Shown: positions 7,582 through 30,224, counted from the stretch's first letter. The stretch is 64,000 bases of DNA from a virus (IMGVR_UViG_3300006155_000234); one strand, 5' to 3'. Notes: generated by a model from the sequence alone, not told the origin. Made by a program: numbers and translations.

Positions 7582-7749
7582 AATAAGACAGCAAAAACTA
7601 GGTAAAAAATTTGATGATAATTGGAAAGAAAACTTGGCTAATGCAAAAAAAGTAAAATACTTATGAATAATGGTATTATTGCAAAATATATAAATAGAGT
7701 AGAAGAACAAGATTACTTAAAAAAGGGATGGAAAAGAGGTAGAAAATGA
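7570..7749 (+). pseudogene. Possible frameshifted remnant of a homing-endonuclease-type DNA-binding tail
   Basis: IEDKIRQQKLGKKFDDNWKENLANAKK in one frame continues as SKILMNNGIIAKYINRVEEQDYLKKGWKRGRK if one A is added to an A7 run at 7645-7651. Confidence 0.35.
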
Positions 7750-8825
7750 TGAAACTTAATATTGAATTTGGAAGAACACTACTTATAGATGGTAGTTATG
7801 TCTTACATAGAATGTTATCACAACCAAACCAATGGGATTTACAAACAACAGCTGGTAAGAGAACTGGAGGCATATTTGGATGTTTAAAAAGTATATTTAA
7901 AGAAATGCAAAGATACAACTATTTCCCAATAGTTGTATTTGATGGTGGATTATCACCCAGAAGATTAAATGTATATTCTAATTATAAAAGAAATGAAGAA
8001 AAACAACTACTATTAGAATGTAAAGAATGTGAAAAAACAGAACAACAGATATTAGACGAAGCATTTATGAGAGAATATAGAACACAAAGAAAAGATATTA
8101 TAACAATGTTACATGGATTAGGTATTCCTTGTATTAGACTTGAAGGTTGGGAAGGTGATGACTTACTTTATATATTATCTAAAATGTCAAGAGATAGTAT
8201 TATAATATCAGATGATAAAGATTTAATTCAAGCAGTTTATGAAGATGAAAACAGAAAATGTAGAATTTGGAGAACAATGCACGAAGAAATGTGGGATATA
8301 AATACATTAAAAAGTAAAGAAATGGATGCATGGAAATACATAAACTGCAAAGCAATAATAGGTGACCCATCTGATAATATTCCATCTGCTTGTTATGGTG
8401 TAGGTGAAAAGACTGCTAGTGGGTTATTACAACTTATAGAATCTTGCAATAAATCTAATATTTCTTTTCCACACACAGAGGAAGATTTAGATTGTAAATG
8501 TAAAAACTTCAATATTCCAAAAAGAAAGGCATATATAAATTTTGATAAAGCACAATTTGTAGTGAATATGGAATTAATGAATTTAAAATTAGTTGATAAT
8601 GATATCACAGATGATTTTGTGAATAAATTATATGATGAAGTTATAATGGAATATAGTACAAATGATTTATATTTAGTAGACCAAAAAATAAAAGAATTCG
8701 AAATGTATTCTGTAAATATAAATGAAATATTAAAAAGAGTATCAAAGTTACATGATTATTTAAAAATAGAAGATGAATTAAAAGTAAAAAATAGTTCAGA
8801 AGAATCAATAAATAAATTATTTTAA
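7746..8825 (+). CDS. 5'-3' exonuclease / flap endonuclease (T4 RNase H-like)
   Basis: LLIDGS, VVFDGG, EGDDL, IISDDKDLIQ, GDPSDNIP and GVGEKTA motifs; C-terminus INKLF. Confidence 0.92.
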   Translation: MMKLNIEFGRTLLIDGSYVLHRMLSQPNQWDLQTTAGKRTGGIFGCLKSIFKEMQRYNYFPIVVFDGGLSPRRLNVYSNYKRNEEKQLLLECKECEKTEQQILDEAFMREYRTQRKDIITMLHGLGIPCIRLEGWEGDDLLYILSKMSRDSIIISDDKDLIQAVYEDENRKCRIWRTMHEEMWDINTLKSKEMDAWKYINCKAIIGDPSDNIPSACYGVGEKTASGLLQLIESCNKSNISFPHTEEDLDCKCKNFNIPKRKAYINFDKAQFVVNMELMNLKLVDNDITDDFVNKLYDEVIMEYSTNDLYLVDQKIKEFEMYSVNINEILKRVSKLHDYLKIEDELKVKNSSEESINKLF

Positions 8826-8837
8826 AATTAGATTGTC

Positions 8838-8850
8838 AAGATGTTATAAT
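8838..8850 (+). promoter_or_regulatory. AAGATGTTATAAT phage promoter motif
   Basis: Full consensus copy, intergenic. Confidence 0.7.
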
Positions 8851-8881
8851 GAATAAGATGAAAATTACATGATAAAAACAC

Positions 8882-8904
8882 TTGACAATCTTTAAAACTT
8901 ATAT
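8882..8904 (+). promoter_or_regulatory. Variant early promoter (TTGACA-ATCTTTAAAACTTATAT)
   Basis: Shares the -35 box and TTTAAAACTTATA spacer core with the other copies; the -10 box is poor. Confidence 0.5.
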
Positions 8905-8921
8905 AAGGAAGAGGTAGTTTA

Positions 8922-11453
8922 ATGAATTTTAAATTTGATGTACAAAGTACAAGTAAAGTAAATCCAGGATTAATATATAGTGTAAAAGAGGAACTTATAG
9001 AAACAAAAAATAAAAAATTCATTACAGATAATTTGCTAGATAACTTTGAAGAAGAATTAGAAGAAGATGGTACAGAATACAATCAAAGTTCATTTAATGA
9101 GGATAAAAGTGTAGAAAAACCAAATCAATTTGAACTAATGAATTCACCATATTACAGAATGTCAGAATTATCTAATAATGAATTGATAAGAAGATATTTG
9201 AATGATTCTATTGAAAATATTATAGTAGATGATGATGCATATACTAAATTTGAAAGAACACAAGATGATATTTTAAAAATTATCAAACTTATTAATGGTT
9301 CTAGTTTACAAGAAATAGCAGATACTCAAAATAAAGGCATTACATTATACAGAGAAGAATTTGTAGAAAATTTAAAATCTAAATTAAAAAGAAAAAGTAA
9401 GGGAAGTATAACAATAGATAAATTTGGTCTTAAAATAGATTATGAATTAGATACAGATGGAATAGTTAAATTTACTAGAGTTATATCCTTATATAATTAT
9501 ATTTTAAGTGGTACAGGAATAGACGAAACAATGTTTGATTTAGATAGAACAGAATATAGTACCATCTTTTGGGATTCGTTTTCAAAAACATATCCTGTTA
9601 TTCCAACTAATAAAAATATGATAATAGATTTTTCACTAATTTCTAAAAATTCTGATGGTAGAATGTCAACAATGGATGCAATAACAGAATTTAGAAATAT
9701 AGTAGATACAGGATGGGCTACTTTAATAGATACTAGAATTAATGCAGGTAATAATCATTATATGCAAGTATGTGAAATAAATGATAATACTCAAGTGCCT
9801 ATTATGGGTAGATATGGGAAAGTAGTATCACAATATATACCAATACATAAAACATTAACTAATAAACAATTATCAGAGTTCGAACTAAAAAATGGATTTG
9901 AATTATTTAGCCATTTAGAAACAGGTTATAATATAATAACTATGCCAGATGGTTTATTTGGCATACTTAATGAAGGTGAGTTTGCTTGTGCAAGAAAAAC
10001 AGGTATATCAACATTTGATGTATTAGTCATAAAAAATTTAAAAAAGATGAGCAGATTTAAAAATAAATATAAAGAAATGAAAGCAATAGACCCAACTTAT
10101 ACAGATATATTTGATGATGAAGATGGGGAACAAATACAAATAAAAACACTAGCAAAAAATAAAGTTATATCAACAGAAATGCAATTATATAATATATTCA
10201 TATCTACCCTACAAAAAAGCAGCAAAACATTGAGATATAAGGGTGGTAATTTCTCATTGCCTTATGAAGATATAAAACTTAATAAAAATATGATGTATGA
10301 ACCAGATACTCTATGGAAAGATTTTATAACAACAGATAGACTTATAGATGAAAGTGATAAAGCATATAATAGAAGACAATATACAATAGGAAATATGTTT
10401 AATAGATTTGTAACCCAATTTAATATTGAGGGAATGAAAGTAACAAGTAATGCTAAAAAATATGCAAATTCATTATTAAATAATATAAATGGAATTAATA
10501 AAAATTTTGGTATTATAAAACCAATAGACTATGAACAATTATCAAACATGACAGTAGGAGAAGTAGTCGATATAGATATGAAGTATTCATTTACAAAATC
10601 ATATTGTTCTTTTATGAATAAAAAGATTAAGGAAGAAAATAAGAACTTTAAAGAACAGGTTATAGACAAGATGCTTAAAGGGAATGGTGGAAAAAGAATA
10701 AAAGTATCAGAAATGATAAGTATAGACAAGTTCATGCATAATAAACTAAATAATATTATATCTAAATTAAGTGAGAATAACCCAGAAACTATTTTAAATT
10801 TAAAAGCAATAAAAGACTACAGGGATAAAATAAATAATATAAATAAAGAATTTGGTATAGATTTAGATATAGATGACTATATGATTGAATATTATAAACA
10901 AAAAAAGATATATAATGAATTTATTAATCAAATTCAAGTATATTCTAATATAAATACTTTATCATTTAGAACAAAACTAGATATACAAAAAATATTAGAG
11001 GAACACAATAAACTAACAGGAAATAATATACAAATACAAAATTTTAAAATGCAAGTAATAGACTTATCAAATGAAATTATAGAAGAAAATAAAGAAATAA
11101 TAAATAATTTAGAAGATAAACAAGTAAAATCAGTAGTAAGAAAAACAAATACAAATCTAAGAAGATTAAATAAGATATTGAAACAAAATATATATAGAAT
11201 AGTAAATTATAGAGATTATAAAACAGCAAAACAAGAAATAAATTTAAAAGAAATATGTATTAGTTTGAAAGAACAATTTAAAATTATATTAGAGAATAAA
11301 AATATAATTAAGACAAATAGATATATTGAAAATATTAATATTATGCAGAATTATATTGATAGTGTTCTAAAAGAATGTTATTCCATAGATTATTACGAAA
11401 AATATTCAATGAATTTATTATCACTAAATAATGTATGTGTTAATTGTGCATAA
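8922..11453 (+). CDS. Large hypothetical protein (843 aa) with K/N/I-rich helical C-terminal half
   Basis: ORF track; two promoter motifs upstream; no family recognised. Confidence 0.7.
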   Translation: MNFKFDVQSTSKVNPGLIYSVKEELIETKNKKFITDNLLDNFEEELEEDGTEYNQSSFNEDKSVEKPNQFELMNSPYYRMSELSNNELIRRYLNDSIENIIVDDDAYTKFERTQDDILKIIKLINGSSLQEIADTQNKGITLYREEFVENLKSKLKRKSKGSITIDKFGLKIDYELDTDGIVKFTRVISLYNYILSGTGIDETMFDLDRTEYSTIFWDSFSKTYPVIPTNKNMIIDFSLISKNSDGRMSTMDAITEFRNIVDTGWATLIDTRINAGNNHYMQVCEINDNTQVPIMGRYGKVVSQYIPIHKTLTNKQLSEFELKNGFELFSHLETGYNIITMPDGLFGILNEGEFACARKTGISTFDVLVIKNLKKMSRFKNKYKEMKAIDPTYTDIFDDEDGEQIQIKTLAKNKVISTEMQLYNIFISTLQKSSKTLRYKGGNFSLPYEDIKLNKNMMYEPDTLWKDFITTDRLIDESDKAYNRRQYTIGNMFNRFVTQFNIEGMKVTSNAKKYANSLLNNINGINKNFGIIKPIDYEQLSNMTVGEVVDIDMKYSFTKSYCSFMNKKIKEENKNFKEQVIDKMLKGNGGKRIKVSEMISIDKFMHNKLNNIISKLSENNPETILNLKAIKDYRDKINNINKEFGIDLDIDDYMIEYYKQKKIYNEFINQIQVYSNINTLSFRTKLDIQKILEEHNKLTGNNIQIQNFKMQVIDLSNEIIEENKEIINNLEDKQVKSVVRKTNTNLRRLNKILKQNIYRIVNYRDYKTAKQEINLKEICISLKEQFKIILENKNIIKTNRYIENINIMQNYIDSVLKECYSIDYYEKYSMNLLSLNNVCVNCA

Positions 11454-11899
11454 TCGATGAAATGCAGTATTTTCAAAGGTTTTAAGGTTTTCAAAAATTA
11501 AATGTTGAAAGCCTATTAAGTGTTCCAAGAAATTTTTAGAATTTAATAAAATATAAATAAGTTTTACTAAATAACAATATATTACTAAAATAGATATTAA
11601 ATATACTGAATAATTGTATGAATTTAGGAAGCAATTTTAATAATTATTTTTGAAGATAAATAAGAGTTTTCGTCATTCAACATTTTTGGCTATTTACTAT
11701 ATGCCTCCTCATATTCTAATATATATTATATTTTTCATGTTCTTTTATTTAAAATTTATTTTATATTTAAAATTATATTTTATATTAAAATCATATCAAG
11801 AATAAATTGAAGAAGAGGAAGAATGTAAATAATCTTACACGTAAATCAAAATCTGAAATTCCATCAAAATATTTCAAAATATAGAATATTGTGGTAATA
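11454..11899. other. Long AT-rich non-coding region, candidate replication origin
   Basis: About 450 bp with no ORF; 10-bp inverted repeat AAATGTTGAA (11500-11509) / TTCAACATTT (11676-11685); long A/T tracts. Confidence 0.35.
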
Positions 11900-11916
11900 T
11901 AGATGTTATATATAAT
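11900..11916 (+). promoter_or_regulatory. AGATGTTATATATAAT phage promoter motif
   Basis: Directly upstream of the GAGGAGG RBS of the DinG gene. Confidence 0.65.
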
Positions 11917-11929
11917 GAGGAGGTAACAA

Positions 11930-14248: not shown

Positions 14249-14261
14249 GAGGTGAAAAATT

Positions 14262-14417
14262 ATGGCATTTGATTTAGATGATGAGGAATTGGAAATGACA
14301 AGGGTTTATATAAATCATTTAGAACCTAAAAATAAAGATGTTAAAAATAATAGTATTGATAAGTTTAAATATTTGTCAAGTAATAAATTAAAGGAGGATA
14401 AAGAAAATGGGAAATGA
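14262..14417 (+). CDS. Small hypothetical protein (51 aa, MAFDLDDEELEMTR...)
   Basis: Manual translation; AGAGGTG RBS. Confidence 0.6.
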   Translation: MAFDLDDEELEMTRVYINHLEPKNKDVKNNSIDKFKYLSSNKLKEDKENGK

Positions 14418-14709
14418 TAGTTTCTTAAAATTATGTAAATTGTTAGTAAAGGATTATTATAATGATATTGTTGAAAAAACTGATGATTTTAAAATAACAG
14501 AAGATAATATTTATATTGTATGGAGTTGTAAAACATTACAAAATAATAAAGCATTAGTAAGTACATCTGTTAGCGATGGTATGTACTATGAAATTACTTA
14601 CAACGGTGATAAAGATGAAGTTTATTTTGATGCCTATAAAAAATGGGAAAATAAAGCAAAGAAAGTTACAGAATTTCTTAAAGAGAAAGGTATTGATTTA
14701 GATGATTAA
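14407..14709 (+). CDS. DUF6275-like phage protein
   Basis: VWSCKTLQNNKALVST...DGMYYEITYNGDKDE.Y.DAYKKWEN. Confidence 0.75.
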   Translation: MGNDSFLKLCKLLVKDYYNDIVEKTDDFKITEDNIYIVWSCKTLQNNKALVSTSVSDGMYYEITYNGDKDEVYFDAYKKWENKAKKVTEFLKEKGIDLDD

Positions 14710-14995
14710 TAAAGTATCTGATTTAGCAGATTATGACAGGAATATGACAGTAGGGGAAGTTATAGAACAATTTAAGAAGGAAAGACCTCATATATGCCCT
14801 AAATGTAATGGTACTGGAGAAGTTTATAATGATGTAGATGAAAATTATGATTTATGTGGACCTCATTCAAGTAGTGGTTATATAAAATGTGATATATGTA
14901 GTGGGCATGGAAGAACTATTGATAAATATGTACCTGTTTATAAGTTAATTGGATATAAGACAGGAGTTGAAACACCTATTTATGAAACAGATTAA
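14702..14995 (+). CDS. Zinc-finger protein (two CxxCxGxG motifs)
   Basis: CPKCNGTG and CDICSGHG. Confidence 0.65.
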   Translation: MINKVSDLADYDRNMTVGEVIEQFKKERPHICPKCNGTGEVYNDVDENYDLCGPHSSSGYIKCDICSGHGRTIDKYVPVYKLIGYKTGVETPIYETD

Positions 14996-15281
14996 AATTA
15001 AAGATACTATTGATTTATACAAATTGACTATGCCACCCTTTAATTTTTCATTTGTAATAGATTATGCATGTGTAGATAAGTATAAGGCTAATTTTTATTG
15101 TAAAAAGATTTATACTGGAAATGATAATGATGATAAGACGTTTTATAAGATATTTGAGTATGATAGAATTATAAGAATACCTAGATTAGATGGTGCATTA
15201 GATGATACATTATATCATCTAATTAAAAATGATTTAACGGAGGTTATTGAAACAGATGGAAACAATAAAGTTTGGTATTAG
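14982..15281 (+). CDS. Hypothetical protein
   Basis: ORF 14949..15281; the ATG overlapping the previous stop (MKQIKIK) is the likely start. Confidence 0.5.
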   Translation: MKQIKIKDTIDLYKLTMPPFNFSFVIDYACVDKYKANFYCKKIYTGNDNDDKTFYKIFEYDRIIRIPRLDGALDDTLYHLIKNDLTEVIETDGNNKVWY

Positions 15282-15866: not shown

Positions 15867-15868
15867 TA

Positions 15869-16255: not shown

Positions 16256-16257
16256 CA

Positions 16258-17427
16258 ATGAGATTATTTATATATTCAGATGTACATATAAGTAGAACAA
16301 GTAGTATATTACCTATTACAAGTAGTTATAGAAAATATACATATAGACAAGATATGATAGTAAAAACTGCACAATGGATGACAGATATTATTCAACAAAA
16401 TAATGTTGATATGATTATAAATTTAGGAGATACATTCGACCAAAATACAATAACAAGCTATGATATAGATACTGCAAGTGAATTTTTTAAAGTATTTCAA
16501 TATCTAAATAAACAACATATAATATTATGTGGAAATCATGAGATGCTTAATACAGATTATAATGTATTAAAATTATTAGACAATATACAAGGAATACAAG
16601 TTATTGATACACCAACAGTTATTGACAATTTATTATTCTTACCATATTGTGACTATAAAGATTTAGACTTATCAAATTATAATGGTAGTGATTATGCTTT
16701 TATGCACCACGATATATATGGTAGTAAAATTTCTGCAAATAGAATACTTGATTTTGGAATAGAGAAAGACAGTTTATCTAAATTTAAGAAAGTATTTAAT
16801 GGGCATGTTCATGCTTGTAGTAAATTTGCAAATATAGTAAATGTAGGAAGTATAACAACTCATTCTTTTGCAGATAGCACTGATTCAGTTCCTACTTGTT
16901 ATATATTTGATACAATTACACAAGAATTGAAAGAGTTTGAAAATAAAATATGCCCTTTATTTAGAAAAATAAAAATAGATACTATTGAAGAAGCTAATGA
17001 TTATATTAAAGAAGCAGAGAATAGCACCTATAATTTTATATTACAGGTTGAATGTGATTTTGAGATGAAAAATGATATAGAAGCATTATTACAAAATTGT
17101 AATAAAATACTTAATTATAAAATAGTTACAAAATCAATTAAGCAAGAAGAACAAAATCAAAATAGTAATATTACATTGGAAAGTAATTTAGATATAAAAC
17201 AATCTTTTAAAGATTTTTTAAATTCAGGTGTTGAGTTAAGATATCCTATGAATTTATATAATGTAGTTATTGGAGAAGTTAAAGGGCAAGAAGAAGTTAA
17301 TGTAAATGATATAACTAATTATGATACTGGAGAAGTTATAAATACTTGGGAAGCTAAATATGGAATTGAAAATAAAAGTCAAGAAAATATGGATAAGATT
17401 TCAAATAAATCAAGTAATTTATTTTAG
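16258..17427 (+). CDS. sbcD: SbcD/Mre11-like metallophosphoesterase nuclease
   Basis: SDVH, LGDTFD, CGNHE, FMHH and NGHVH calcineurin-like motifs; C-terminus SSNLF. Confidence 0.88.
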   Translation: MRLFIYSDVHISRTSSILPITSSYRKYTYRQDMIVKTAQWMTDIIQQNNVDMIINLGDTFDQNTITSYDIDTASEFFKVFQYLNKQHIILCGNHEMLNTDYNVLKLLDNIQGIQVIDTPTVIDNLLFLPYCDYKDLDLSNYNGSDYAFMHHDIYGSKISANRILDFGIEKDSLSKFKKVFNGHVHACSKFANIVNVGSITTHSFADSTDSVPTCYIFDTITQELKEFENKICPLFRKIKIDTIEEANDYIKEAENSTYNFILQVECDFEMKNDIEALLQNCNKILNYKIVTKSIKQEEQNQNSNITLESNLDIKQSFKDFLNSGVELRYPMNLYNVVIGEVKGQEEVNVNDITNYDTGEVINTWEAKYGIENKSQENMDKISNKSSNLF

Positions 17428-17438
17428 GGGTGTTTTGA

Positions 17439-18314
17439 ATGGGTAAACATATAAAAAAGTCTAATAAAGGTGTATATGGATTTAAGTTGTTAGATTATTT
17501 AGAATATATTGTATATTCTAATCTTAATACTAAAATATATAAGGTCGAGGAGGTTGGACTAAAGGGAGAGTTATTCGCAGATATACCAAAATTCAATGGA
17601 GAATATATGATTAGTAATAAAGGAAACATATTTAGAAAGATTTACAATAAGTCTTTTAGTAAATGGGAATATACAAAGGTATCTGTATTTATGGATAAAT
17701 TTATATCTGAAAAGGAACAGGGTAATGGAACTGTAAACAATTATTTATATGCAAATATTATTAGTGATGGTAAATCTTATAAATTATGGGTAGGAAGAAC
17801 AGTTGCAGAATTATTTGTTCCTAAACCAAAATACATTTTATTTAAAGATGGACTATTTGAATCTAAAATACCAATAGACCAAAGTAAGCTTAGAGTGTGC
17901 TATAAAAATAATACTGGAACAGATGTAAGTAGCGATAATATAAGATGGGTGTTTAGAAATGATGTGAGCTATAAAGGTGTTACTATTGGAAATAATACCT
18001 TACCTAAATATAATAATAACGGAGAGCGTTATGTTGTTTATAGAGTTAGCGATGGATTTGTTAAAAAGATATTTTCTAATATTAGAGATACTGGTGCATT
18101 CCTAGGATACCCAAATGCAAATGGTGACGTTACTATAAGATTGTGTAAAGGAAGAAGAAAAACAATTACAGATATAGAAGGTGACGTTGTATCCTGTAGA
18201 AAACTAAGTCAACTTAAAAATGATACTACAAGAGAATGTGTCAATTTGTATGAAAGTGCATTAAAGGTGCTGAATATGGAAAAAGAAAAAGAGATTTCTA
18301 ATAAATTATTTTAA
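17439..18314 (+). CDS. NUMOD4 + degenerate HNH + NUMOD1-like protein (probably nuclease-dead homing endonuclease derivative)
   Basis: DIPKFNGEYMISNKGNI (NUMOD4); VGRTVAELFV...VCYKNNTGTDVSSDNIRWV aligns to the HNH_3 pattern but with the His residues lost; KIFSNIRDTGAFLG (NUMOD1-like); ends SNKLF. Confidence 0.6.
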   Translation: MGKHIKKSNKGVYGFKLLDYLEYIVYSNLNTKIYKVEEVGLKGELFADIPKFNGEYMISNKGNIFRKIYNKSFSKWEYTKVSVFMDKFISEKEQGNGTVNNYLYANIISDGKSYKLWVGRTVAELFVPKPKYILFKDGLFESKIPIDQSKLRVCYKNNTGTDVSSDNIRWVFRNDVSYKGVTIGNNTLPKYNNNGERYVVYRVSDGFVKKIFSNIRDTGAFLGYPNANGDVTIRLCKGRRKTITDIEGDVVSCRKLSQLKNDTTRECVNLYESALKVLNMEKEKEISNKLF

Positions 18315-18327
18315 GGAGTGTATAAGT

Positions 18328-18561: not shown

Positions 18562-18565
18562 ATTA

Positions 18566-18600: not shown

Positions 18601-21600
18601 ATGAATTTAATACAAAATATTTTTCAAAACCCTGAATTTAAAATTGAGGGAGACCAACATAAATTAAAAAAGAGAATATTAAAAGATATAATCAATATGA
18701 ATTGGTTTAACAGTTGCGATTTATTAGTTGGATATAAAGATGGTCAGAGAGAATACACAAATCCACAAAGATGGCAACTAGATGCAGCAAATAGTTTATT
18801 TGAGTTTTACTGGAACTATACAGTAGATAGATATACTAATTATCAAGATTTAGAGAATGAAATTTATAATCACATGAAAAATTCTAAATATATAGGAGTA
18901 CAAACAACAGTATTACCTAAATTTACAATTCCATTTAGAGCAGATAAGGGACAATGTATGGTAGATGAAAATGGAAATCAAACATTTAGAGATGGTACAC
19001 CTACAAGACCTTTTTACTCATTGATATATATTGCACAGAATGGATTTATTGATTTTGATAATAAAGTAAGATTGAAAGACTGGAATGAAGTTGTAAAATC
19101 AAATCCTAAATACTTGAAATATTTTGAAACTTGTATAGACCATTTTGATGATGGAGAGAATGGTGTTAAAAAAGAAATAAGAGATTTGGCTAAATCATAT
19201 AAGGATTTTAGAGAATACCTAGACCCAAATCTACCAATTTTAGAAGATAGAAAATGGTTATATGATTTTTGTGTTAATGTAGAAGTAAAATGTGACCCAT
19301 ATAAAAATTATGAAACAGAGTTATTAAGAAAAAATGGTTTTATAGTTATGGGTGGAAATGAATTTATATATTATAATGATATTGCATGTGTAAATTGTGG
19401 TAAACCTCATTTTAGAAACGGCTTATGTAAAGACTGTTGTGAAATGAATTTTAAAGATAGAATGATAGGAAATAAATTATATGGGAATATAAGTCAAAAA
19501 AGTAATTCAATTCAACAAGATGCAGTTAAATTAGCAGGGGCAGCTTCAAGTGCAAGTTCAGGAAGTTTTAGAGTTAGTGATGGTACATCAAGACAAGGAC
19601 ATTCTGTAAGCGATGAGAGTATAGATAATGTGTCTTGGAACTCTGTTGCAAGTAGAGCTAGTAGAGCAGCAGGATTAAATGTTGGTACTGCACCTTCTGG
19701 AAATAGTGGTGTGATAGGTGATGATGAGTTATCAAGTGCTGGAAATACAGCAGTAAAAAGTAATGCCAGTAAGTCTGTTGGGTATAATGTAGGAGAAGTA
19801 ACAGTAAGTAACAATACAACAGGAATATCAACAGCAGTTGCAGAAGAAAGAATGTCAGATGCAAGTCATACAGCAGTTGCAAGTAAAGTAAGTAGAATGC
19901 CAGGTCAAAATGTAAGTGTAAATATAACTGGTAAATCTCATACAGTACTTGATGATACAATATCTATTGTAAGTGGTGCTTCTGCAGCAAGTATAGCTAG
20001 TAGAGCTTCAGGAATGCAATTAGAAAATCAAAGTGTGCAAGTAGGTACACAAACAACATCAAATAGTGAAACAATGAGAGCAGATATTTTAACAGAAGCA
20101 GGACATAATGCTTCTAAATCTGCAAGTAATTCAAATACAGTTCAAGTTGGCACATCAACATCTGCACATAGCACATCAATATCAGATGATAGTGTAGGTT
20201 CTGTTGCAAATGTTAGTGTTTCAAGTGGTAGTTCACAATCAAGAGGCTTAAATATAGGTATGCAAAAATCAAGTGCAAATTCAAGTGTAATTGATGATGA
20301 AACATTGCAATTTGCAAGTCATGATAGTAGAATTGCAGCATTTACACATTCATCAGGGGCATCAAATGTAACATCAGAAGAGAGTGTTCAAAGAGCTGGT
20401 TTAGAATCAAGAACTGCTGGATTCCAAACCGCTGTTAGAGCTGTAAATGTAGGTAATAATGAGTTTGCAAACTCAAAAACAAGAGTGGGAAATTCAACTT
20501 CAGGAAATTCACATACAACAGGAGATAATACAGTATCTCAAATAGGTATGGAGGCTAGAACCAGTGCATTTCAAACAAAATTAAGTTCTGAAAATGTAAT
20601 AAATGTTGGAACAACTACATCAAGAGTTTCTAATGTAAATGTAGAAGAAACTACAGCAGAAGCAGGTATGACAAGTAGAAGTAGTATGACAACATCTGTT
20701 TCTGCAAATAGTGTAAATGTAGGTACAACTACATCTGAACAATCATTTGCAAGAAATAAAGATACAGTTGATGAGGCAGGAAAAGCAAGTAGAAGTAGCA
20801 TAACAACCTCACCATCTGCATTAAATAGTAATGATGTTAAATTTATTGGAAATATAAAAGATTTTGTTTATACATCTGAAAATACTGTTAGATACTATTC
20901 ATCTCAAGGTAAAATATTTGATATGACAATTCCAGATGGTTATAAATATCCAGATAATATATCTACAAATAGATTTTTTATGTTTGGAAGTTTTAATGGG
21001 AATTTAGAATTATTAAAACAATTTTGCCCTTCAAATGCTTTTGTATTTGACCCATTTGCAGGACACGGAGACAGAGCATTATTCTTTATGGAATATGGCT
21101 GTAAAACATATATAGGAAATGATACAAATGAACGTGAATGGAATTTCCTAAATAATAATCTAATTGAATTAATAAATAAATATAAGAGATTTAACCAAAG
21201 ATGTGAGGTTAGAATCAAAAATTCAATGATTTATGAACCAGAATTAGAGAATAAGGTTGATTTTGTTTACACATCTCCTCCATATTTTGATTTTGAAATG
21301 TATGATGGGTTTACAGAGCAAATCGCTGGTATGAAAACTTATGATGATTTCCATAGAGAATTTTCAATACCTATCTTTAAAAATGTATATAGATATATGA
21401 AAGATGGTGGTGTTGTAATATTACAAACAGAGAAAGATAAAAAACTAAAACAAAAATGGATAGATATGATGGTAAGTGTTGGATTTAAAAATATTACAGA
21501 GAATGATTTAAGTAATGAACAGAAACATGGTATTAATAAAACTATTCAAGAAATAGGAATTTTTGTTAAAGGTGACTATGGAAGAGCAGAAGCAAAACAA

Positions 21601-21621
21601 TCAAGCAACACATTATTTTAG
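18601..21621 (+). CDS. Multidomain DNA amino-methyltransferase (N4-C/N6-A), paralog 1: unknown N-domain + Zn finger + about 13 repeats + MTase
   Basis: C-terminal FDPFAGHG (motif I) and YTSPPYF (motif IV); CVNC...CKDC; residues about 301-750 are an imperfect repeat array; ends SNTLF. Confidence 0.8.
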   Translation: MNLIQNIFQNPEFKIEGDQHKLKKRILKDIINMNWFNSCDLLVGYKDGQREYTNPQRWQLDAANSLFEFYWNYTVDRYTNYQDLENEIYNHMKNSKYIGVQTTVLPKFTIPFRADKGQCMVDENGNQTFRDGTPTRPFYSLIYIAQNGFIDFDNKVRLKDWNEVVKSNPKYLKYFETCIDHFDDGENGVKKEIRDLAKSYKDFREYLDPNLPILEDRKWLYDFCVNVEVKCDPYKNYETELLRKNGFIVMGGNEFIYYNDIACVNCGKPHFRNGLCKDCCEMNFKDRMIGNKLYGNISQKSNSIQQDAVKLAGAASSASSGSFRVSDGTSRQGHSVSDESIDNVSWNSVASRASRAAGLNVGTAPSGNSGVIGDDELSSAGNTAVKSNASKSVGYNVGEVTVSNNTTGISTAVAEERMSDASHTAVASKVSRMPGQNVSVNITGKSHTVLDDTISIVSGASAASIASRASGMQLENQSVQVGTQTTSNSETMRADILTEAGHNASKSASNSNTVQVGTSTSAHSTSISDDSVGSVANVSVSSGSSQSRGLNIGMQKSSANSSVIDDETLQFASHDSRIAAFTHSSGASNVTSEESVQRAGLESRTAGFQTAVRAVNVGNNEFANSKTRVGNSTSGNSHTTGDNTVSQIGMEARTSAFQTKLSSENVINVGTTTSRVSNVNVEETTAEAGMTSRSSMTTSVSANSVNVGTTTSEQSFARNKDTVDEAGKASRSSITTSPSALNSNDVKFIGNIKDFVYTSENTVRYYSSQGKIFDMTIPDGYKYPDNISTNRFFMFGSFNGNLELLKQFCPSNAFVFDPFAGHGDRALFFMEYGCKTYIGNDTNEREWNFLNNNLIELINKYKRFNQRCEVRIKNSMIYEPELENKVDFVYTSPPYFDFEMYDGFTEQIAGMKTYDDFHREFSIPIFKNVYRYMKDGGVVILQTEKDKKLKQKWIDMMVSVGFKNITENDLSNEQKHGINKTIQEIGIFVKGDYGRAEAKQSSNTLF
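19501..20850 (+). repeat. Intragenic array of about 13 imperfect protein repeats, mostly 33-41 aa
   Basis: Recurring T-x-S..S..(V/I)x(D/E)(D/E)x(V/L)..AG..S(R)...NVG, e.g. TTTSRVSNVNVEETTAEAGMTSRSSMTTSVSANSVNVG followed by TTTSEQSFARNKDTVDEAGKASRSSITTS. Confidence 0.75.
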
Positions 21622-21635
21622 AAAGAGGTTTAATA

Positions 21636-23534
21636 ATGAATTTAGTACAGAATATTTTTCAGAATCCTGAATTTAAAATTACAGGGGATAAAAATAAGCT
21701 AAAACAGAAAATTGCTAAAGATATTATTAATATGTATTGGTGGAATGATTGTCATATCCTAATTGGGTATGACAGTTCATTTCGAGTATATTCTAACCCA
21801 GAATTATGGCAAATAGATATTGCAAATGACCTTTACGAATATTATTGGAATAAACAACAAGATAGTATTACAATAGATAAGTTGGAAGATAGTATTTATA
21901 AATATTTTAAAGGTAAGCAACAAGATTTTGATACAAATAATGGATATTTATCTGCATTTAATATGAAATACAGAATGGACACACAACAGTTTATGCATGA
22001 CGAAAATGGAAATCAAACATTTAGAGATGGTACACATAATAGAGCATTTTATTCATTAATATATTTAGGACAAAATGGATTTATTGATAGAGATGGATTT
22101 ATGAAAATCAAAGATTTTGATACAGTAATAAAAGGAACTAAATTTGAAAAGTTTTTTGAATTATCAAAACATAAAATTAAAAGTGAAAAAAGTATGGTAT
22201 CTGAGGAGATAAATGCACTAAAAAATACATATAGACAGTTTGATGAATACCTAGACCCAAATTTACCAATTTTAGAAGACAGAAAATGGTTATATGAAAT
22301 ATATTTAGATTTAAAATTAAAATGTGACCCATTTAAAAATTATGAATTAGAATTATTAAATAAGAATGGTTCGATAGTTGGTTCTGGGAATGAAGATATT
22401 TATATAGACATAGATGGTAATAAATGCGATTGTTGTGGTGTTAATAATAGGTATATAAATGGTTTGTGTAAAAATTGCCAAGATGTTAAAATATCTAAAA
22501 ATGGTAGGGTTTCAAGGGTATCTGGAACAAGTATTGCAACTAGAAGTATTGATGCAGGTGTTCAAGATGCATCTGTTATGGTAAATACTACAAGTCATAC
22601 ATATCAACCAAGAGGAATAAGAGCAGATAGGATATCAAGTACAAGTACATCATGTATATCTGATAATGATATGACAACTGCTGCTGCATTTTCAACAAAG
22701 GCTTCAGCAACATATCGTCCTAGAGGAATAAGAGTAGATGATGAAGATTGTATTGGTGGTATTAAATATTTTAAATATAATGAAGATGGAACAGTACATT
22801 ATGATTTTCCAAGTGGTAAGATACAAATGGATATGTCTGTACCAAAAGGATATACATACCCTAAACAAATTGCAATAGATAGATTTGCCATATATGGAAG
22901 TTTTAAAGGTAATCCTGAATTATTAAAAGAATTTTGCCCTAAAAGTGCATTTGTATTTGACCCTTTTGCTGGGCATGGAGATAGGGTTTTAATGTTTGCT
23001 AAATATGGTGTTAAAACATATATAGGAAATGATACAAATTCAAAAGAATGGAATTATCTTAACAGTACTTTTATGCCTATATTAAATAAATATAAAAAAT
23101 TTGGACAACATTTTGAAGTTAGAATAAAAGATTCTAAAATTTATGAACCAGAATTAGAGAATAAGGTTGATTTTGTTTACACATCTCCACCTTACTTTGA
23201 CTTTGAAATGTATGATGGTTTTGAAGAACAGATACAAGGTATGAAAGATTATGATGATTTCCATAAGTATTTTTCAACACCTATATTCACAAATGTTTAT
23301 AAGTACATGAAAGACGGAGGAATAGTAATTTTACAAACTGAAAGAATTGATAAATATAAAGAAAAATGGATAAAAATGATGGAAAATGTTGGTTTTAAGT
23401 GTTTATCTAGTAATGTACTAAATATGAAAAATGCAATGGCAAAAAGAGTAAATATGCTACAAGAAGTTGCTATTTTTGTTAAAGGTGACTATAAGATAGA
23501 TGAAGTCAAAACACAACAGAATAAATTATTTTAG
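21636..23534 (+). CDS. Multidomain DNA amino-methyltransferase, paralog 2 (short linker)
   Basis: N-domain clearly homologous to paralog 1 (MNL.QNIFQNPEFKI.GD; FRDGT; YLDPNLPILEDRKWLY); CDCC...CKNC; FDPFAGHG, YTSPPYF; ends QNKLF. Confidence 0.82.
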   Translation: MNLVQNIFQNPEFKITGDKNKLKQKIAKDIINMYWWNDCHILIGYDSSFRVYSNPELWQIDIANDLYEYYWNKQQDSITIDKLEDSIYKYFKGKQQDFDTNNGYLSAFNMKYRMDTQQFMHDENGNQTFRDGTHNRAFYSLIYLGQNGFIDRDGFMKIKDFDTVIKGTKFEKFFELSKHKIKSEKSMVSEEINALKNTYRQFDEYLDPNLPILEDRKWLYEIYLDLKLKCDPFKNYELELLNKNGSIVGSGNEDIYIDIDGNKCDCCGVNNRYINGLCKNCQDVKISKNGRVSRVSGTSIATRSIDAGVQDASVMVNTTSHTYQPRGIRADRISSTSTSCISDNDMTTAAAFSTKASATYRPRGIRVDDEDCIGGIKYFKYNEDGTVHYDFPSGKIQMDMSVPKGYTYPKQIAIDRFAIYGSFKGNPELLKEFCPKSAFVFDPFAGHGDRVLMFAKYGVKTYIGNDTNSKEWNYLNSTFMPILNKYKKFGQHFEVRIKDSKIYEPELENKVDFVYTSPPYFDFEMYDGFEEQIQGMKDYDDFHKYFSTPIFTNVYKYMKDGGIVILQTERIDKYKEKWIKMMENVGFKCLSSNVLNMKNAMAKRVNMLQEVAIFVKGDYKIDEVKTQQNKLF

Positions 23535-23553
23535 TAATGAGGTAGGTTTTCAA

Positions 23554-25551: not shown

Positions 25552-25562
25552 GAGGTTTTTCA

Positions 25563-26033
25563 ATGATTAAATTTGAATATGTAAATAGGCTAAAAGAAAT
25601 CGGTGTAGACCCAAGTGCAGATGGTTCTGAAATGAGATTACCATATAGAAGCACAAAGAAGTCAGCAGGGTATGACTTTATAAATCCAGAAACAGTTACA
25701 ATTCAACCGAAGGAAATTAAGTATGTAAAGACAGGAATTAAAGCATTATTTCCAGATGATTTTGTATTAAAATTATACAACAGAAGCTCAAATCCAAAGA
25801 AATTAGGATTAGTATTAGCAAATGGTGTTGGAATTGTAGATGCAGACTATTATAATAACCCTGATAATGAAGGAGAAATTGCATTTGCATTTGTGAATAT
25901 TAAAGATGAGCCAGTTACATTAGAATATGGTTGTAAATTAGGACAAGGAATATTTGAAAAATATTATATTGTTAATGAAGAAGATACTATTACAGCAGAA
26001 AGAACTTCTGGGTTTGGTTCAACAGGAGAATAA
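25563..26033 (+). CDS. dut: Trimeric dUTPase
   Basis: SAGYDF, RSS, GIVDADY, GQGIF and RTSGFGSTG motifs. Confidence 0.93.
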   Translation: MIKFEYVNRLKEIGVDPSADGSEMRLPYRSTKKSAGYDFINPETVTIQPKEIKYVKTGIKALFPDDFVLKLYNRSSNPKKLGLVLANGVGIVDADYYNNPDNEGEIAFAFVNIKDEPVTLEYGCKLGQGIFEKYYIVNEEDTITAERTSGFGSTGE

Positions 26034-26034
26034 T

Positions 26035-26226
26035 ATGATATATGAAGTTAGAACGACAGACTTTAAAGGAAAATGTGGTAATTGTTTCTATTTTGAAACA
26101 TCGAATGGAATTGATGGAAATTGTACTAGTTTAGAAACACAAATCAGACCATGGAACAGGTTTAGAAGTTATAATAGTAAAGCATGTGTTCATAAGGAGG
26201 TAAGTAGTGAGAAGACAAGACCTTGA
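26035..26226 (+). CDS. Small Cys-rich protein (CGNC...C...C)
   Basis: Internal ATG of ORF 25954..26226, coupled to the dut stop. Confidence 0.55.
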   Translation: MIYEVRTTDFKGKCGNCFYFETSNGIDGNCTSLETQIRPWNRFRSYNSKACVHKEVSSEKTRP

Positions 26227-26560
26227 AAAGGGAATAGAGGATTTAAAAGAAATTAGAAATATAGCCTCAAAACAAGATTATAATACATCTGTTGCAATAA
26301 ATCAAAAGTTAATTAAAATAATACCACTATTAGAAAGTGAATATAATAGAATGGTTAAAGATAATATAGATTTAGACAGTCCAATGTACAGAGAAATAAC
26401 AATGTGTGATTGTGAAGAAGTACATAAAACAATGGAAGAATTTTTAAATAATTATATGGCAGAGTTAGTTGATAATGACTTCTTTATTGTAGATTATGGA
26501 ATAATCTATATAGATAAACAAAATAAGTATGGATATGTTAAGTATAGTAGAAATAAGTAA
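26207..26560 (+). CDS. Hypothetical protein
   Basis: ORF track; AAGGAGG RBS with GTG start. Confidence 0.6.
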   Translation: MRRQDLEKGIEDLKEIRNIASKQDYNTSVAINQKLIKIIPLLESEYNRMVKDNIDLDSPMYREITMCDCEEVHKTMEEFLNNYMAELVDNDFFIVDYGIIYIDKQNKYGYVKYSRNK

Positions 26561-26573
26561 GGTGGTGTTATAG

Positions 26574-26864
26574 ATGATTGCAATGATAAGTCAACCAATG
26601 GGAAATAAAACAAATAAAGAAATAGAAGAAGAAAGAAAAGAATTGGTAGAAGTTTTAGAAGAACAAGGATATGATGTTTTAGATACAGTTCTTACAGCAG
26701 ATGATGTTTCTAAAGATGACCCAATATGCTATTTAGCAAAATCATTAGAATTATTAGCAGAAGCAGATATTTTAGTATGTATGAGCGGTTGGGAAAATGC
26801 AAGAGGTTGTAGAATAGAGCATTTAGTAGCAGAAGAATATGGTAAGCAGATAATGGAATTATAG
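26574..26864 (+). CDS. DUF4406-like (nucleoside deoxyribosyltransferase fold) protein
   Basis: MISQPMGNK...ER...LAKSLELLAEAD...GWENARGCRIEH.VA..YG. Confidence 0.7.
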   Translation: MIAMISQPMGNKTNKEIEEERKELVEVLEEQGYDVLDTVLTADDVSKDDPICYLAKSLELLAEADILVCMSGWENARGCRIEHLVAEEYGKQIMEL

Positions 26865-26876
26865 GAGGAATTTGTT

Positions 26877-27230
26877 ATGCAATATTTCCTTAAAGTATAT
26901 AATCTAAATAAAGAAACATTGGTAGGTTATTATAAATCAACAGGTTTAAGTTGTATTTCTAAATTACCTAAGGGAATCAAATATTGGAATAATAGAGAAG
27001 AAGCATTAGAAGTTGCAAGAGATATGAATTATAATGGTTTTATGAGAGATTCTGATGGTAAGTATTATACACCTTTTTGGGTGGTTTGTGGTGACCATAC
27101 CAAAGAACCTAAAAAGAATACATTTAAAAATCAATTTGAAAATGAAGAAGGAGAGAACAATTATGGTATTGAAGCCTATTTACGACAAAATAGTAGTAAA
27201 GATGAAAAATACACAGGAGATACATTCTGA
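26877..27230 (+). CDS. Hypothetical protein
   Basis: ORF track; AGGAGG RBS; 3' end overlaps groES. Confidence 0.55.
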   Translation: MQYFLKVYNLNKETLVGYYKSTGLSCISKLPKGIKYWNNREEALEVARDMNYNGFMRDSDGKYYTPFWVVCGDHTKEPKKNTFKNQFENEEGENNYGIEAYLRQNSSKDEKYTGDTF

Positions 27231-27474
27231 AACAGGTTTGGTATATCAGAAAGACATGAGCCAAACATCAAATACAACCCTAGTTGCTGAAATAGTTGCA
27301 GTTGGAGATGGAAGATTATTAAGTGATGGTTCAATAGTACCATTAAAAGTAAAAGTAGGAGATAATATTGTTATATCTAAACATCAAGGAGAAAGTTTTA
27401 GTGATGGTAAAAATGAATATACAATATTATCTGAAAGTCACGTATTATCAATAATTGAGGAGGATAACCAATAA
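27163..27474 (+). CDS. groES: Co-chaperonin GroES
   Basis: LKPIYDKIVV, AEIVAVGDG, PLKVKVGDNIVISK, Y.ILSESHVL; start at ATG 27163 (AAGGAG RBS). Confidence 0.9.
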   Translation: MVLKPIYDKIVVKMKNTQEIHSETGLVYQKDMSQTSNTTLVAEIVAVGDGRLLSDGSIVPLKVKVGDNIVISKHQGESFSDGKNEYTILSESHVLSIIEEDNQ

Positions 27475-27752
27475 TGAATGGTATTGAAATTACAGATATA
27501 AAGATAAAAAAATTAAATAATTTAGGAAGATTAATAGGAGAAGCATCTATAACATTAAATGAATGTTTGGTAATACATAATATTCAAATTATTCAAACAG
27601 ATGAGAGAAGATTTATTAGTTTTCCACATAAAAAATTACATGATAAGATAGTAGACACAGTACATCCGATAACAAGAGAATTTAGGAGTTATGTTGAGGA
27701 TAATATTTTTGAAATGTTTGATAGGGGAGAGGTAGATGAAAGTATTAGATAA
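27474..27752 (+). CDS. spoVG: SpoVG-family nucleic-acid-binding protein
   Basis: ITDIKI...ASITL...VIHNI.II......FISFP......D.VHPIT.E.R. Confidence 0.85.
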   Translation: MNGIEITDIKIKKLNNLGRLIGEASITLNECLVIHNIQIIQTDERRFISFPHKKLHDKIVDTVHPITREFRSYVEDNIFEMFDRGEVDESIR

Positions 27753-27957
27753 TGGTATTGAAATTGGTGAATTATCAAAAATACATTTAGAAGAAAATGA
27801 TATTGTAGTTTTTGATTTTAAAGATAAAACTTTAAACCAAGAATCTATAAATAATATATATAATAATATGAAATCTATTTTTCCTAATAATAAGATTCTA
27901 TTTAAAAATAATGATGTTGAGATTAAAATTATAGAAGGGAGAAAAGATAATGAGTAA
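27736..27957 (+). CDS. Hypothetical protein
   Basis: ORF track; overlaps both neighbours. Confidence 0.55.
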   Translation: MKVLDNGIEIGELSKIHLEENDIVVFDFKDKTLNQESINNIYNNMKSIFPNNKILFKNNDVEIKIIEGRKDNE

Positions 27958-29590
27958 AGATATTAAGTTTGGTGATGATGCTCAAAAATCAATTATAAAA
28001 GGTATAAATTCTGTTTCAAATATTGTAAAAACAACAATAGGACCAAAAGGTAGAAATGTTTTGATTAGAGAGAATGGAAGCATTCCAGTAATAACAAATG
28101 ACGGTGTTACGATAGCAAAATCAATAAAATTAAAAGATAATACAGAGGATGCAGGAGCAGCACTAATAATATCTGCTGCAAATAAAACAAATATGGTAGC
28201 AGGAGATGGAACAACAACTACAACTGTATTAGCATCTGAAATGATAAATAAGGGTTTTGAAACATTAAGTAACTTAAACTTAAATCCAGTACAAATACAA
28301 AAAGAATTAAATAATATAGCAGAAGATATTAGTAATAAATTATTAGAAAGTGCTATTGAAGTTAAAGATGATGAATCAATTAAGAGAGTTGCAACTATTT
28401 CAAGTGGTAATGAGAAAACTGGCGAACTTATTGCAGATGCATTTAAACAAGCTGGTGAACATGGAACAGTAATTGTAGAAGATAGTAAAACTGGAATTAC
28501 AGGTTTAACTTCTGTAATGGGAATGAGATTACCAAATGGCTCTGTATCTCCATATTTATTAGAAAGAAGAACACTTGTATCAGAGATAGATGATGTTAGT
28601 GTTTTAATATCAAAGGATAGACTAGATAATGTACCAGATTTATTACCTATATTAGATACTTGTAATAAAGAAGGCAGAAGATTGCTAATTATATGTGAAG
28701 ATATAGATGTTGAACCTTTAAATTTTATTGTAATGAATAAAGCTAATGGAGCATTAAATGTAAACATTATTAGACTTCCTGGATTTAATATGGACTTAAA
28801 AAATTCTATGATAGATGATTTATGTATTGCAACAGGTTCCACAACAATTAGTAGAGAGGCAGGAAGACCTATTAAATCATTTAATTCTTCTTGGTTTGGT
28901 GAATTAAGTAGTGCAAAAATAGAATTAGATGAAACAATATTAAAATTTAAAGATGTAAATTCTTTTGGAGTTAATTTATTAGAAGATAGAACTGCAAGAG
29001 TTGAGGAACTATTAGAACAGAAAAAGACTTTAGGTGTAGGTAAGGATACAACTCAATATGATAAAAGGATTGCCAATTTAGCTGGTGGAATATCTGTTAT
29101 AGAAATAGGTGGAAATTCAGACGTGGAAATAAAAGATACTAAATTAAGAGTTGAAGATGCTTTAAATTCAGTCAAAGCAGCTATGGAAGAAGGAATTGTT
29201 GCAGGTGGTGGATATAGTTTATTAAAAGTTGCTAATGAAATATCAGAAGATTTATCAAACATGTCATTAGAAAAAGCAACAGCTTATACTATAATGCAAG
29301 AATCTTTAACCAAAGTTACACAACAAATTGCTAACAATGCTGGATTTGATGGTAAAGATGTGGTAATGAAATGTATTGAAATACAAAAAGGATTTAATGC
29401 TTTAACAAATGAATATGAAGATTTAATTGAAACTGGTGTTATAAATGCAGTAAAAGTTGATAGATATTGTGTTTTAAATGCTGCTAGTGTAGCAGGAACT
29501 ATACTTACTATGGGTGGTGCAATTATAGAGGAAAATGAAAAAGACCAAAATTTATTACAACTTATTCAACCAAATGTACCAATAATATAG
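27950..29590 (+). CDS. groEL: Chaperonin GroEL
   Basis: TIGPKGRNV, ITNDGVTIAK, AGDGTTTTT, EEGIVAGGG; lacks the GGM C-terminal tail. Confidence 0.95.
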   Translation: MSKDIKFGDDAQKSIIKGINSVSNIVKTTIGPKGRNVLIRENGSIPVITNDGVTIAKSIKLKDNTEDAGAALIISAANKTNMVAGDGTTTTTVLASEMINKGFETLSNLNLNPVQIQKELNNIAEDISNKLLESAIEVKDDESIKRVATISSGNEKTGELIADAFKQAGEHGTVIVEDSKTGITGLTSVMGMRLPNGSVSPYLLERRTLVSEIDDVSVLISKDRLDNVPDLLPILDTCNKEGRRLLIICEDIDVEPLNFIVMNKANGALNVNIIRLPGFNMDLKNSMIDDLCIATGSTTISREAGRPIKSFNSSWFGELSSAKIELDETILKFKDVNSFGVNLLEDRTARVEELLEQKKTLGVGKDTTQYDKRIANLAGGISVIEIGGNSDVEIKDTKLRVEDALNSVKAAMEEGIVAGGGYSLLKVANEISEDLSNMSLEKATAYTIMQESLTKVTQQIANNAGFDGKDVVMKCIEIQKGFNALTNEYEDLIETGVINAVKVDRYCVLNAASVAGTILTMGGAIIEENEKDQNLLQLIQPNVPII

Positions 29591-29610
29591 TAATAAGGTG
29601 GTAGAAAACC

Positions 29611-29787
29611 ATGAAATTGAATCAAAAATATTTAAGGTGTAAAAGATGTCATAGAAGGTTGAAAACAGAAGAGGCACAAAAAAGAGGGTATGGTTATCAC
29701 TGTTTTCAACTATACCTTGAAGAGAGAAAGAAAAAGAGTAAAAATTTAATAGATATTGCAGAGGAAATGAAACAAGGTAATATCTAA
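29611..29787 (+). CDS. Small Zn-binding protein (DUF6011-like, CKRCHRRL...GYGYHC)
   Basis: Manual translation, 58 aa; AAGGTGG RBS. Confidence 0.65.
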   Translation: MKLNQKYLRCKRCHRRLKTEEAQKRGYGYHCFQLYLEERKKKSKNLIDIAEEMKQGNI

Positions 29788-29801
29788 AATTGGAGTGAGA
29801 T

Positions 29802-30224
29802 ATGATGAAACAAAGTGATTTTGAAAAGAAATTAAATAAGGTACTTACAGAGGAAGAACATTATGTTCTTAATATCTTATTGCTATCATATCTAACCAAT
29901 GATGAAAGTTATAAAGATATAGCAGAATTATGCTTTATGTTTGATGAATATTCTAATTTTAAAAAATTTATAAAATATTATGGTGGTAGAACTTTAAAGA
30001 TACCAACACAAGAAGAGTTAAGACTTGCATTGAAACATTTACTATTATTCCAATATGTAAAAATAGATGGTGCAGATTTTGAAGATAGCTATAAAAGAGT
30101 TAAACTAAAAGAACTAAATATTAGTAAGGAAGATGCAAGTAATACTATTGAAAGATTTTACAATTACTTAAAGGAGAATGGAAATCAAGTATTTAGAGGT
30201 AGAAAAAGAAATAGATTATTTTAG
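29802..30224 (+). CDS. Mor-like transcriptional regulator
   Basis: FIKYYGGRTLKIP resembles the Mor-family YGG..lyIP motif; ends RNRLF. Confidence 0.5.
   Translation: MMKQSDFEKKLNKVLTEEEHYVLNILLLSYLTNDESYKDIAELCFMFDEYSNFKKFIKYYGGRTLKIPTQEELRLALKHLLLFQYVKIDGADFEDSYKRVKLKELNISKEDASNTIERFYNYLKENGNQVFRGRKRNRLF

Follow-up and report, generated by a model that had tools for sequence, protein, structure and literature searches.

Why should proteins of quite different function, encoded by one large phage, all end in the same two residues? The question is raised by IMGVR_UViG_3300006155_000234, a 64,000-nucleotide stretch of viral DNA (referred to in its entirety as the window), in which six predicted proteins have C-termini that finish in Leu-Phe (LF) and the DNA polymerase has a similar element at its N-terminus. 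An earlier note on this DNA wrote the tails as N-x-L-F and read them as a putative code for docking on a sliding clamp made by the phage itself. The window (G000:C3:31994-95993) lies within a 220-kb contig, C3, with 27% GC, and the assembly behind it comprises 2.39 Mb in 29 contigs. The region is part of the genome of an uncultured giant phage. Nearly all of its genes lie on one strand, and the gene set includes a family A polymerase, DnaB-like helicase, primase, SSB, UvsX-like recombinase, RusA, SbcCD and GroEL. IMG/VR includes complete genomes of relatives, about 196-214 kb long and ending in terminal repeats. Whole-genome comparison used three IMG/VR records (G001, G002 and G003), and two syntenic ENA loci (L007 and L009) and two further relatives (L137 and L138) were compared at locus level. 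Open reading frame (ORF) sets were crude, with 83 ORFs in the window and 2481 in the whole assembly. An Rfam scan of the window gave no match.

Translation confirmed the six C-termini reported earlier, as well as the polymerase N-terminus, and two extra tails were found on C3 beyond the window, on an NAD-dependent DNA ligase and a third DNA methyltransferase (MTase). The proteins concerned are as follows, with lengths in amino acids (aa) and contig coordinates for the last two.

7746-8825, plus strand: 5'-3' exonuclease/flap endonuclease (FEN), 359 aa, ending INKLF; Pfam 5_3_exonuc_N, E 7e-20.
16258-17427, plus strand: SbcD/Mre11-type nuclease, 389 aa, with an appended linker of ~45 aa, ending SSNLF; Pfam Metallophos and phrog_100 (SbcD).
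17439-18314, plus strand: HNH/NUMOD4-like protein, 291 aa, ending SNKLF; phrog_959 (HNH), E 2e-10, and NUMOD4.
18601-21621, plus strand: DNA methyltransferase 1 (MTase 1), 1006 aa, ending SNTLF.
21636-23534, plus strand: DNA methyltransferase 2 (MTase 2), 632 aa, ending QNKLF; a paralog of MTase 1.
29802-30224, plus strand: small all-helical protein, 140 aa, with a free basic tail, RKRNRLF.
40283-42538, plus strand: family A DNA polymerase with 3'-5' exonuclease, N-terminus MADLF; Pfam DNA_pol_A, E 9e-90.
C3:127755-129386: NAD-dependent DNA ligase, ending NNSLF.
C3:211036-212055: third methyltransferase (MTase 3), N4/N6-type, ending SNKLF.

The earlier impression that such endings exceed chance holds up when computed: six occur among the 83 ORFs of the window, against 0.28 expected from composition. 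With the observed frequency of the LF dipeptide, the probability of at least six LF endings is 9e-7, and for N-x-L-F it is 3e-11. In the assembly as a whole, LF closes 24 of the 2481 ORFs, 10 of them on C3, and seven of the eight N-x-L-F endings are on this phage contig. Two of the C3 hits are short hydrophobic ORFs on the minus strand that are probably not genes. The eight credible carriers that are left (FEN, SbcD, the HNH-like protein, three MTases, the ligase and the small basic helical protein) all act on nucleic acid. The textbook motif for binding the bacterial beta clamp is QL[SD]LF. The only striking LF ending off C3 has that form; it is the QLSLF terminus of PolC (contig C10, 1943 aa) in the same assembly.

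Parts of the original description need correction. The six proteins had been called unrelated; their endings stand as described, but MTase 1 and MTase 2 are paralogs with ~52% identity, so that their tails count as one event, not two (MTase 3 is a distant paralog, with 27-31% identity). The terminal L-F is invariant, whereas the Asn at position -4 is merely frequent, with orthologs that show THLF, SVLF, GALF, KTLF or GRLF; the motif as read from these alignments is thus x-x-L-F-COOH and not a strict N-x-L-F.

Conservation of the tails in related phages is extensive. For SbcD, the 15 closest homologs (60-99% identity, of 120) all end in LF, and L388 and F389 are invariant columns, while the linkers that precede them vary in length and sequence (endings NTLF, SVLF, TTLF, GALF, NSLF, NILF and KTLF). 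The other 105 homologs (<=51% identity) stop at the end of the folded domain, ~25-45 aa earlier, and none ends in LF. SbcD as a single-protein query against viral contigs gave no match; an alignment-based scan was productive. FEN keeps LF in six of six genomes examined, outgroup phages included (ortholog ends NSHLF, ITHLF, RKTLF and IGRLF); LF is also the ending of its four nearest 50%-identity representatives, with LF or NLF[IK] on a few at greater distance. The 140-aa protein ends in [KRN]LF in 30 of 32 homologs. MTase and ligase tails are present in all close relatives examined, with SNTLF and TNTLF on MTase 1 orthologs and SDTLF and QNTLF on those of MTase 2. L007, L009 and G001 retain LF on FEN, SbcD, MTase 1 and MTase 2; G001 also retains it on a C-terminal ligase fragment, MTase 3 and the 140-aa protein. 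Both outgroups, G002 and G003, have LF on FEN, and G002 additionally on the small protein; in neither was LF found on SbcD or ligase, and the MTases are absent. Gains occur as well: the SNF2 helicase of G003 ends in HNSLF, and an unrelated, canonical beta-class MTase of L137 ends in NMLF. By this comparison, non-homologous proteins acquired the tail independently.

An explanation without function has to be weighed against this record. LF ends could have arisen from codon bias in AT-rich DNA, from paralogy or from a signal at the nucleotide level (TTATTTTAR with a ribosome-binding site after it). At 27% GC the codons TTA (Leu) and TTT (Phe) come cheap; MTase 1 is a paralog of MTase 2, and the HNH-like tail may be a copy of that of SbcD. 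Composition predicts only about 0.3 LF ends in the window, however, and the equally AT-rich remainder of the assembly has 14 among 2204 ORFs. The Leu and Phe codons of the tails are at background usage and switch between orthologs (TTA, CTA, CTT and TTG; TTT and TTC), and stop codons alternate between TAA and TAG. A nucleotide-level motif was rejected on this synonymous variation. Because synonymous and stop codons vary while L-F stays, selection on the tails acts at the protein level, with the constraint on their residues and not on DNA. Together with the independent gain of tails by non-homologous proteins, these observations largely refute the absence of function, which we consider highly improbable. 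Read-through or recoding at TAG, which follows five of the six tails, was also rejected: the genes that follow are read in different frames and have ribosome-binding sites of their own, TAA and TAG are equally frequent in orthologs, and one third of all phage genes end in TAG.

A candidate receptor for the tails is encoded immediately downstream of the polymerase gene.

42562-43911, plus strand: phage beta-type sliding clamp, 449 aa, with a disordered 72-aa N-terminal extension and three clamp domains; phrog_947 (processivity factor), E 4e-19.

That this protein is DnaN-like, as proposed before, is borne out by structure. Its AF2 model (built with 15 homologs) has pLDDT >90 for residues 78-449 and three repeated clamp domains, and the top 50 Foldseek hits in the PDB are all bacterial DnaN (best 3t0p, TM 0.84, E 4e-23). 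Sequence searches detect far less: a weak match to a solved beta clamp in the PDB (8dt6, E 0.007) and no Pfam hit, the DnaN models included, with one homolog (P0129) carrying PF00712 in its precomputed annotation. The model thus places the protein in the DnaN family as a member that is very divergent by sequence.

The binding cleft was compared among E. coli DnaN, the DnaN of the assembly and 17 phage clamps. In E. coli, residues T172, G174, L177, P242, V247 and V360 form subsite 1 of the cleft, the seat of the client's Leu-Phe. They align with T252, G254, I257, P325, I332 and V444 of the phage protein, and these equivalents are conserved in the 17 phage clamps, in a sequence alignment at ~18% identity. 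Subsite-2 positions (E. coli N320, Y323, V344, S346, M364 and R365) are not retained. Local matches between the E. coli and phage clamps are ATDGHRLAV/ATTGDNIAV and, at the C-terminus, AYVVMPMRL/AYVIGVAI. The alignment supports the view that the phage clamp has kept the LF-holding subsite, and retention of subsite 1 with loss of subsite 2 fits tails in which L-F alone is fixed. PDB entries 4k3l and 4k3o, listed among the Foldseek matches, bear titles that describe complexes of the E. coli clamp with AcLF and AcQADLF. The MADLF start of the polymerase is identical in four relatives (including G001, L137 and L138) with clamps that are 37-46% identical, and reads MPLFE in G002. A complex prediction for the clamp (residues 73-449) with the SbcD tail (residues 355-389) gave a score of 0.18 against a mark of 0.32, with no controls alongside, and is evidence neither way.

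We consider that the LF tails are probably a minimal LF-COOH docking code for the phage's own clamp, with binding still putative. Docking on the phage clamp is favoured because the carriers include classical clamp clients, namely a flap nuclease, a ligase and the polymerase. Those refuting conditions of the earlier note that were examined all turned out in its favour: the 42562 protein has the fold of a clamp, and related phages keep the tails. The motifs are all at the extreme C-terminus, and a position at a terminus or in a disordered segment fits clients with clamp-binding motifs; the motif is kept among orthologs while its flanks vary, as in such clients. Each tail, borne on a flexible polar linker, would insert in subsite 1 of the DnaN-type clamp (42562-43911), which the phage's own loader (about 46961-48766) would place on phage DNA and which would act as a tool-belt. 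The family A polymerase would dock via its N-terminal MADLF, the flap nuclease and NAD-ligase for maturation of Okazaki fragments, and SbcD, with SbcC, for processing of ends and hairpins. Docking of the three MTases would lead to methylation of new phage DNA at or just behind the fork, and the small helical basic protein could tie a transaction on DNA, late transcription perhaps, to replication. We infer tail-clamp binding and all of these consequences from the evidence above; replication-coupled methylation and clamp-coupled transcription, both of which the earlier note had suggested, are drawn by analogy with other systems.

Several observations weigh against docking on the phage clamp. The tails, of the form [N/S/T/D/G]-[polar]-L-F, depart from the QL[SD]LF/QxxLF consensus, with Q absent at -5 and no hydrophobic residue at -4, so that the L-F core alone matches; without Q and the first hydrophobic residue, they could bind with low affinity. 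Helicase, primase, SbcC, UvsX and RusA carry no tail, which makes the code a selective one and not a general one. The pocket comparison rests on an alignment at ~18% identity, not on superposition. The clamp sequence changes quickly (C3 and G001 share 37-39% identity in it, against ~70% for most proteins) while LF is fixed, a pattern that fits a generic LF pocket and yields no co-variation signal. The clamp-loader ATPase is frameshifted in this assembly, and the basic tail RKRNRLF of the 140-aa protein could instead be a DNA-binding or ClpX-type tail. Finally, no clamp was detected in the outgroup G003, yet its FEN ends in LF.

This last observation bears on a different receptor. The tails might dock on the host beta clamp, instead of or besides the phage clamp, and so bring phage enzymes to host-loaded clamps or compete with host clients. 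LF is the minimal ligand of subsite 1 in the bacterial beta clamp (the AcLF entry, 4k3l), proteins of phage Mu use the host clamp (PMC12867686), and in the assembly considered here PolC has its C-terminal QLSLF and DnaN a canonical pocket. The bacterium in the bin is not established as the host, however, and tails without the upstream Q and L would bind a canonical host clamp weakly. The phage, moreover, encodes its own clamp, with the LF subsite kept, and a clamp loader near the polymerase. We therefore regard recruitment to the host clamp as unlikely.

Another kind of hub could read LF-COOH: a protease or unfoldase, for which the tail would be a degron timing when early enzymes are removed, or a different member of the replisome, for example the polymerase or SSB. 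Hydrophobic or basic C-terminal tails are known degrons, as in ssrA LAA and MuA RRKKAI (ClpX), and the tail of the small protein, RKRNRLF, is basic. In phage T7, C-terminal Phe tails dock on gp5, and the tip of the SSB described here, RRTT[ED][VM]F, suggests that docking by a terminal Phe is used more than once in this replisome. Such readers fit the remaining evidence poorly: the set of carriers coincides with that of the classical clamp clients, the encoded clamp keeps the LF subsite by alignment, the polymerase motif is N-terminal and would be invisible to a reader of C-terminal degrons, and T7-type tails are acidic whereas the LF tails are polar or basic. A degron or a different replisome hub is, in our judgement, quite improbable.

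Docking of the tails on the phage clamp has precedents in several systems, each of which it resembles only in part. Clients of the bacterial beta clamp that use QL[SD]LF or QxxLF include Pol III alpha, PolC, Pol II, Pol IV, Pol I, LigA, MutS/L and Hda; to our knowledge, MTases, SbcD and HNH-like proteins are not among them. Shared features are the clamp fold, a terminal Leu-Phe on a flexible tail, subsite-1 residues conserved in the alignment, and a ligase and a 5'-3' exonuclease among the clients, which are putative here. Here, by contrast, only the last two residues are fixed, Asn or another polar residue replaces Q and the first Leu, and the receptor is phage-encoded, with ~18% identity and a disordered N-terminal extension of 72 aa. 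In phage T4, gp45 binds terminal motifs of the polymerase (gp43), ligase, gp33 and gp55 (PMC7892883, PMC6212786). As in T4 and RB69, the phage has its own clamp and loader, unrelated proteins carry terminal hydrophobic peptides, ligase and polymerase are clients (putative ones here), and a small transcription-type protein is a possible client. The differences are that gp45 is a PCNA-like trimer with longer motifs, whereas the present clamp is DnaN-like and the motif is LF-COOH; that the polymerase here is of family A with an N-terminal motif; and that MTases and SbcD are extra putative clients.

In phage Mu, MuC and Mor bind host beta via terminal motifs of the DLF type, which late transcription requires, and the Mu clamp motifs are N-terminal Qx[DE][LM]F and C-terminal QPDLF (PMC12867686). 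The likeness lies in a small regulator-like protein that ends in LF and in the polymerase start, MADLF, which resembles the DLF core important in Mor; unlike the present phage, Mu relies on the host clamp, and the 140-aa protein cannot be shown to belong to the Mor/C family. PCNA offers a further parallel, as the maintenance methyltransferase DNMT1 is one of its clients. Archaeal Mre11 also binds PCNA through a C-terminal motif (PMC6009593). Among PIP-box proteins (DNMT1, FEN1, Lig1 and archaeal Mre11) an MTase, a flap nuclease, a ligase and an Mre11-type nuclease are tethered to the replication clamp by a terminal peptide; the clamp belongs to another family, the motif is another (Qxx[LIM]xx[FY][FY]) and so is the domain of life, and the likeness is one of analogy only.

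The principle of clamp-binding peptides is therefore known. New, in the literature searched, are the DnaN-type phage clamp, the two-residue motif, and MTases and SbcD as putative clients; no description of clamp-tethered MTases in bacteria or phages was found in that literature. Were the tails to bind, methylation of phage DNA would take place while it emerges from the fork, which would close the interval in which host restriction can act on unmodified DNA, and the many MTases of giant phages would have a simple explanation. A terminal LF on a polar linker, combined with a phage clamp, offers a rule, based on sequence only, for the prediction of replisome-associated proteins among the unknowns of large phages. 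The tiny LF-COOH motif would also be a convenient model for the spread of linear motifs between proteins. A wider proposal is that the whole clade of gut phages (~210-kb genomes with a DnaN-like clamp) uses a two-residue LF-COOH code. The clamp would then be a platform for Okazaki maturation enzymes and several MTases, with replication-coupled, self-protective methylation as an analogue of DNMT1-PCNA, as well as for SbcCD and a small regulator that could tie late transcription to replication, in the manner of T4 and Mu. The code would spread readily, as its presence on SbcD, ligase, the SNF2 helicase, unrelated MTases and the HNH gene may indicate. We hold this wider proposal to be plausible, though somewhat short of probable.

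Certain carriers deserve separate comment. In MTase 1, motif I (DPFAGHG, at about residue 817) precedes SPPY (residue 892) and ~110 aa remain to the C-terminus. Truncation of the MTases, considered because PF01555 matches only in its first half, was rejected; with motif I upstream of SPPY, the I-to-IV order indicates a complete domain. The ligase ORF enters the adenylation-domain profile at position 65, and its alignment with the G002 ortholog begins at residue 108 of the latter, so that an N-terminal part of ~107 aa is missing or separately encoded.

The earlier description of the HNH-like protein as a dead HNH agrees with inspection by eye: the two catalytic-His positions of HNH_3-type homing endonucleases appear to be Gly (..LWVGRTVAELF..) and Tyr (..RVCYKNN..). 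No homolog was found in C3, G001, G002, G003 or host contigs, and L007 has no HNH-like gene between SbcD and MTase 1; on this distribution the gene is an insertion specific to this phage. Its tail resembles the adjoining SbcD tail (NMDKISNK..LF against NMEKEKEISNKLF), and the DNA of the tail aligns with the SbcD 3' end at about 55-60% identity in AT-rich sequence, which lends weak support to the idea that it is a copy of its neighbour. Since the tail may have been copied from SbcD, the protein may be a passenger rather than a selected client.

For the 140-aa protein, the label Mor-like given to it earlier is not established: the Pfam Mor model (PF08765) scores 12.6 bits against a cut-off of 24.9 (E 0.14), and a profile search of the PDB gave no match. 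Its AF2 model is all-helical (pLDDT 84), with residues 135-140 disordered (pLDDT <50). MuC (9l0x_H) is the rank-11 Foldseek hit (E 1.0, TM 0.41), and the best VIA-align Z is 5.1, with several rows of sigma region 4 at Z ~4. The protein is a possible DNA-binding or transcription factor.

Other replication genes have features of their own. In the N-terminal extension of the clamp (window 42562-42780, residues 1-72), the first residues, MEEN..YG.P, are invariant in 15 of 15 homologs while the rest varies, so that they form a second conserved linear motif of the clamp. Two clamp-loader genes lie 3 kb downstream of the clamp, and both are conserved in relatives.

46961-47969, plus strand: clamp-loader ATPase (DnaX/delta'-like); PF13177, E 5e-30, AAA and DNAX lid; one-base frameshift at ~47015.
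47945-48766, plus strand: second clamp-loader-like subunit, 273 aa; weak PF13177, E 1e-4; near-terminal LLFK.

Codons 1-18 of the ATPase gene (MSKESWAVQYRPKSWDALI) are in one frame, and the remainder (GQPHIRK.., with Walker A) is in the next. The extra base at ~47015 (ATTCGGACAG) is not in L138 (ATAGGACAA), which has an intact form of 335 aa; an error of assembly, a genuine lesion or +1 frameshifting at a rare CGG codon could each account for it. The second subunit ends in ..SLLFKG here, ..SLLFKELL in L137 (16596-17408) and ..GLLFKE in L138 (15374-16180). The element [SG]LLFK is thus kept two to four residues from its C-terminus in three of three genomes, and may be a clamp contact of the subunit's own.

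The phage SSB (window 39517-40266) has a C-terminal tip, RRT[TL][ED][VM]F, in six of six genomes (including G001-G003, L137 and L138). This terminal-Phe tip, which is distinct from the LF tails, is probably used to dock a partner. PolC of the assembly (C10:64706-70537) is ~500 aa longer than usual and its PHP domain is matched in two stretches; an inserted element such as an intein is possible. In relatives, the polymerase and ligase genes are split by inserted ORFs (G001:C1:76913-78235 and 132744-135566; L137:5687-9604). The split in L137 contains two inserted GIY-YIG genes, and a NUMOD3 endonuclease gene lies just upstream of its clamp-loader gene. In this clade, replication genes are hot spots at which homing endonucleases or introns insert.

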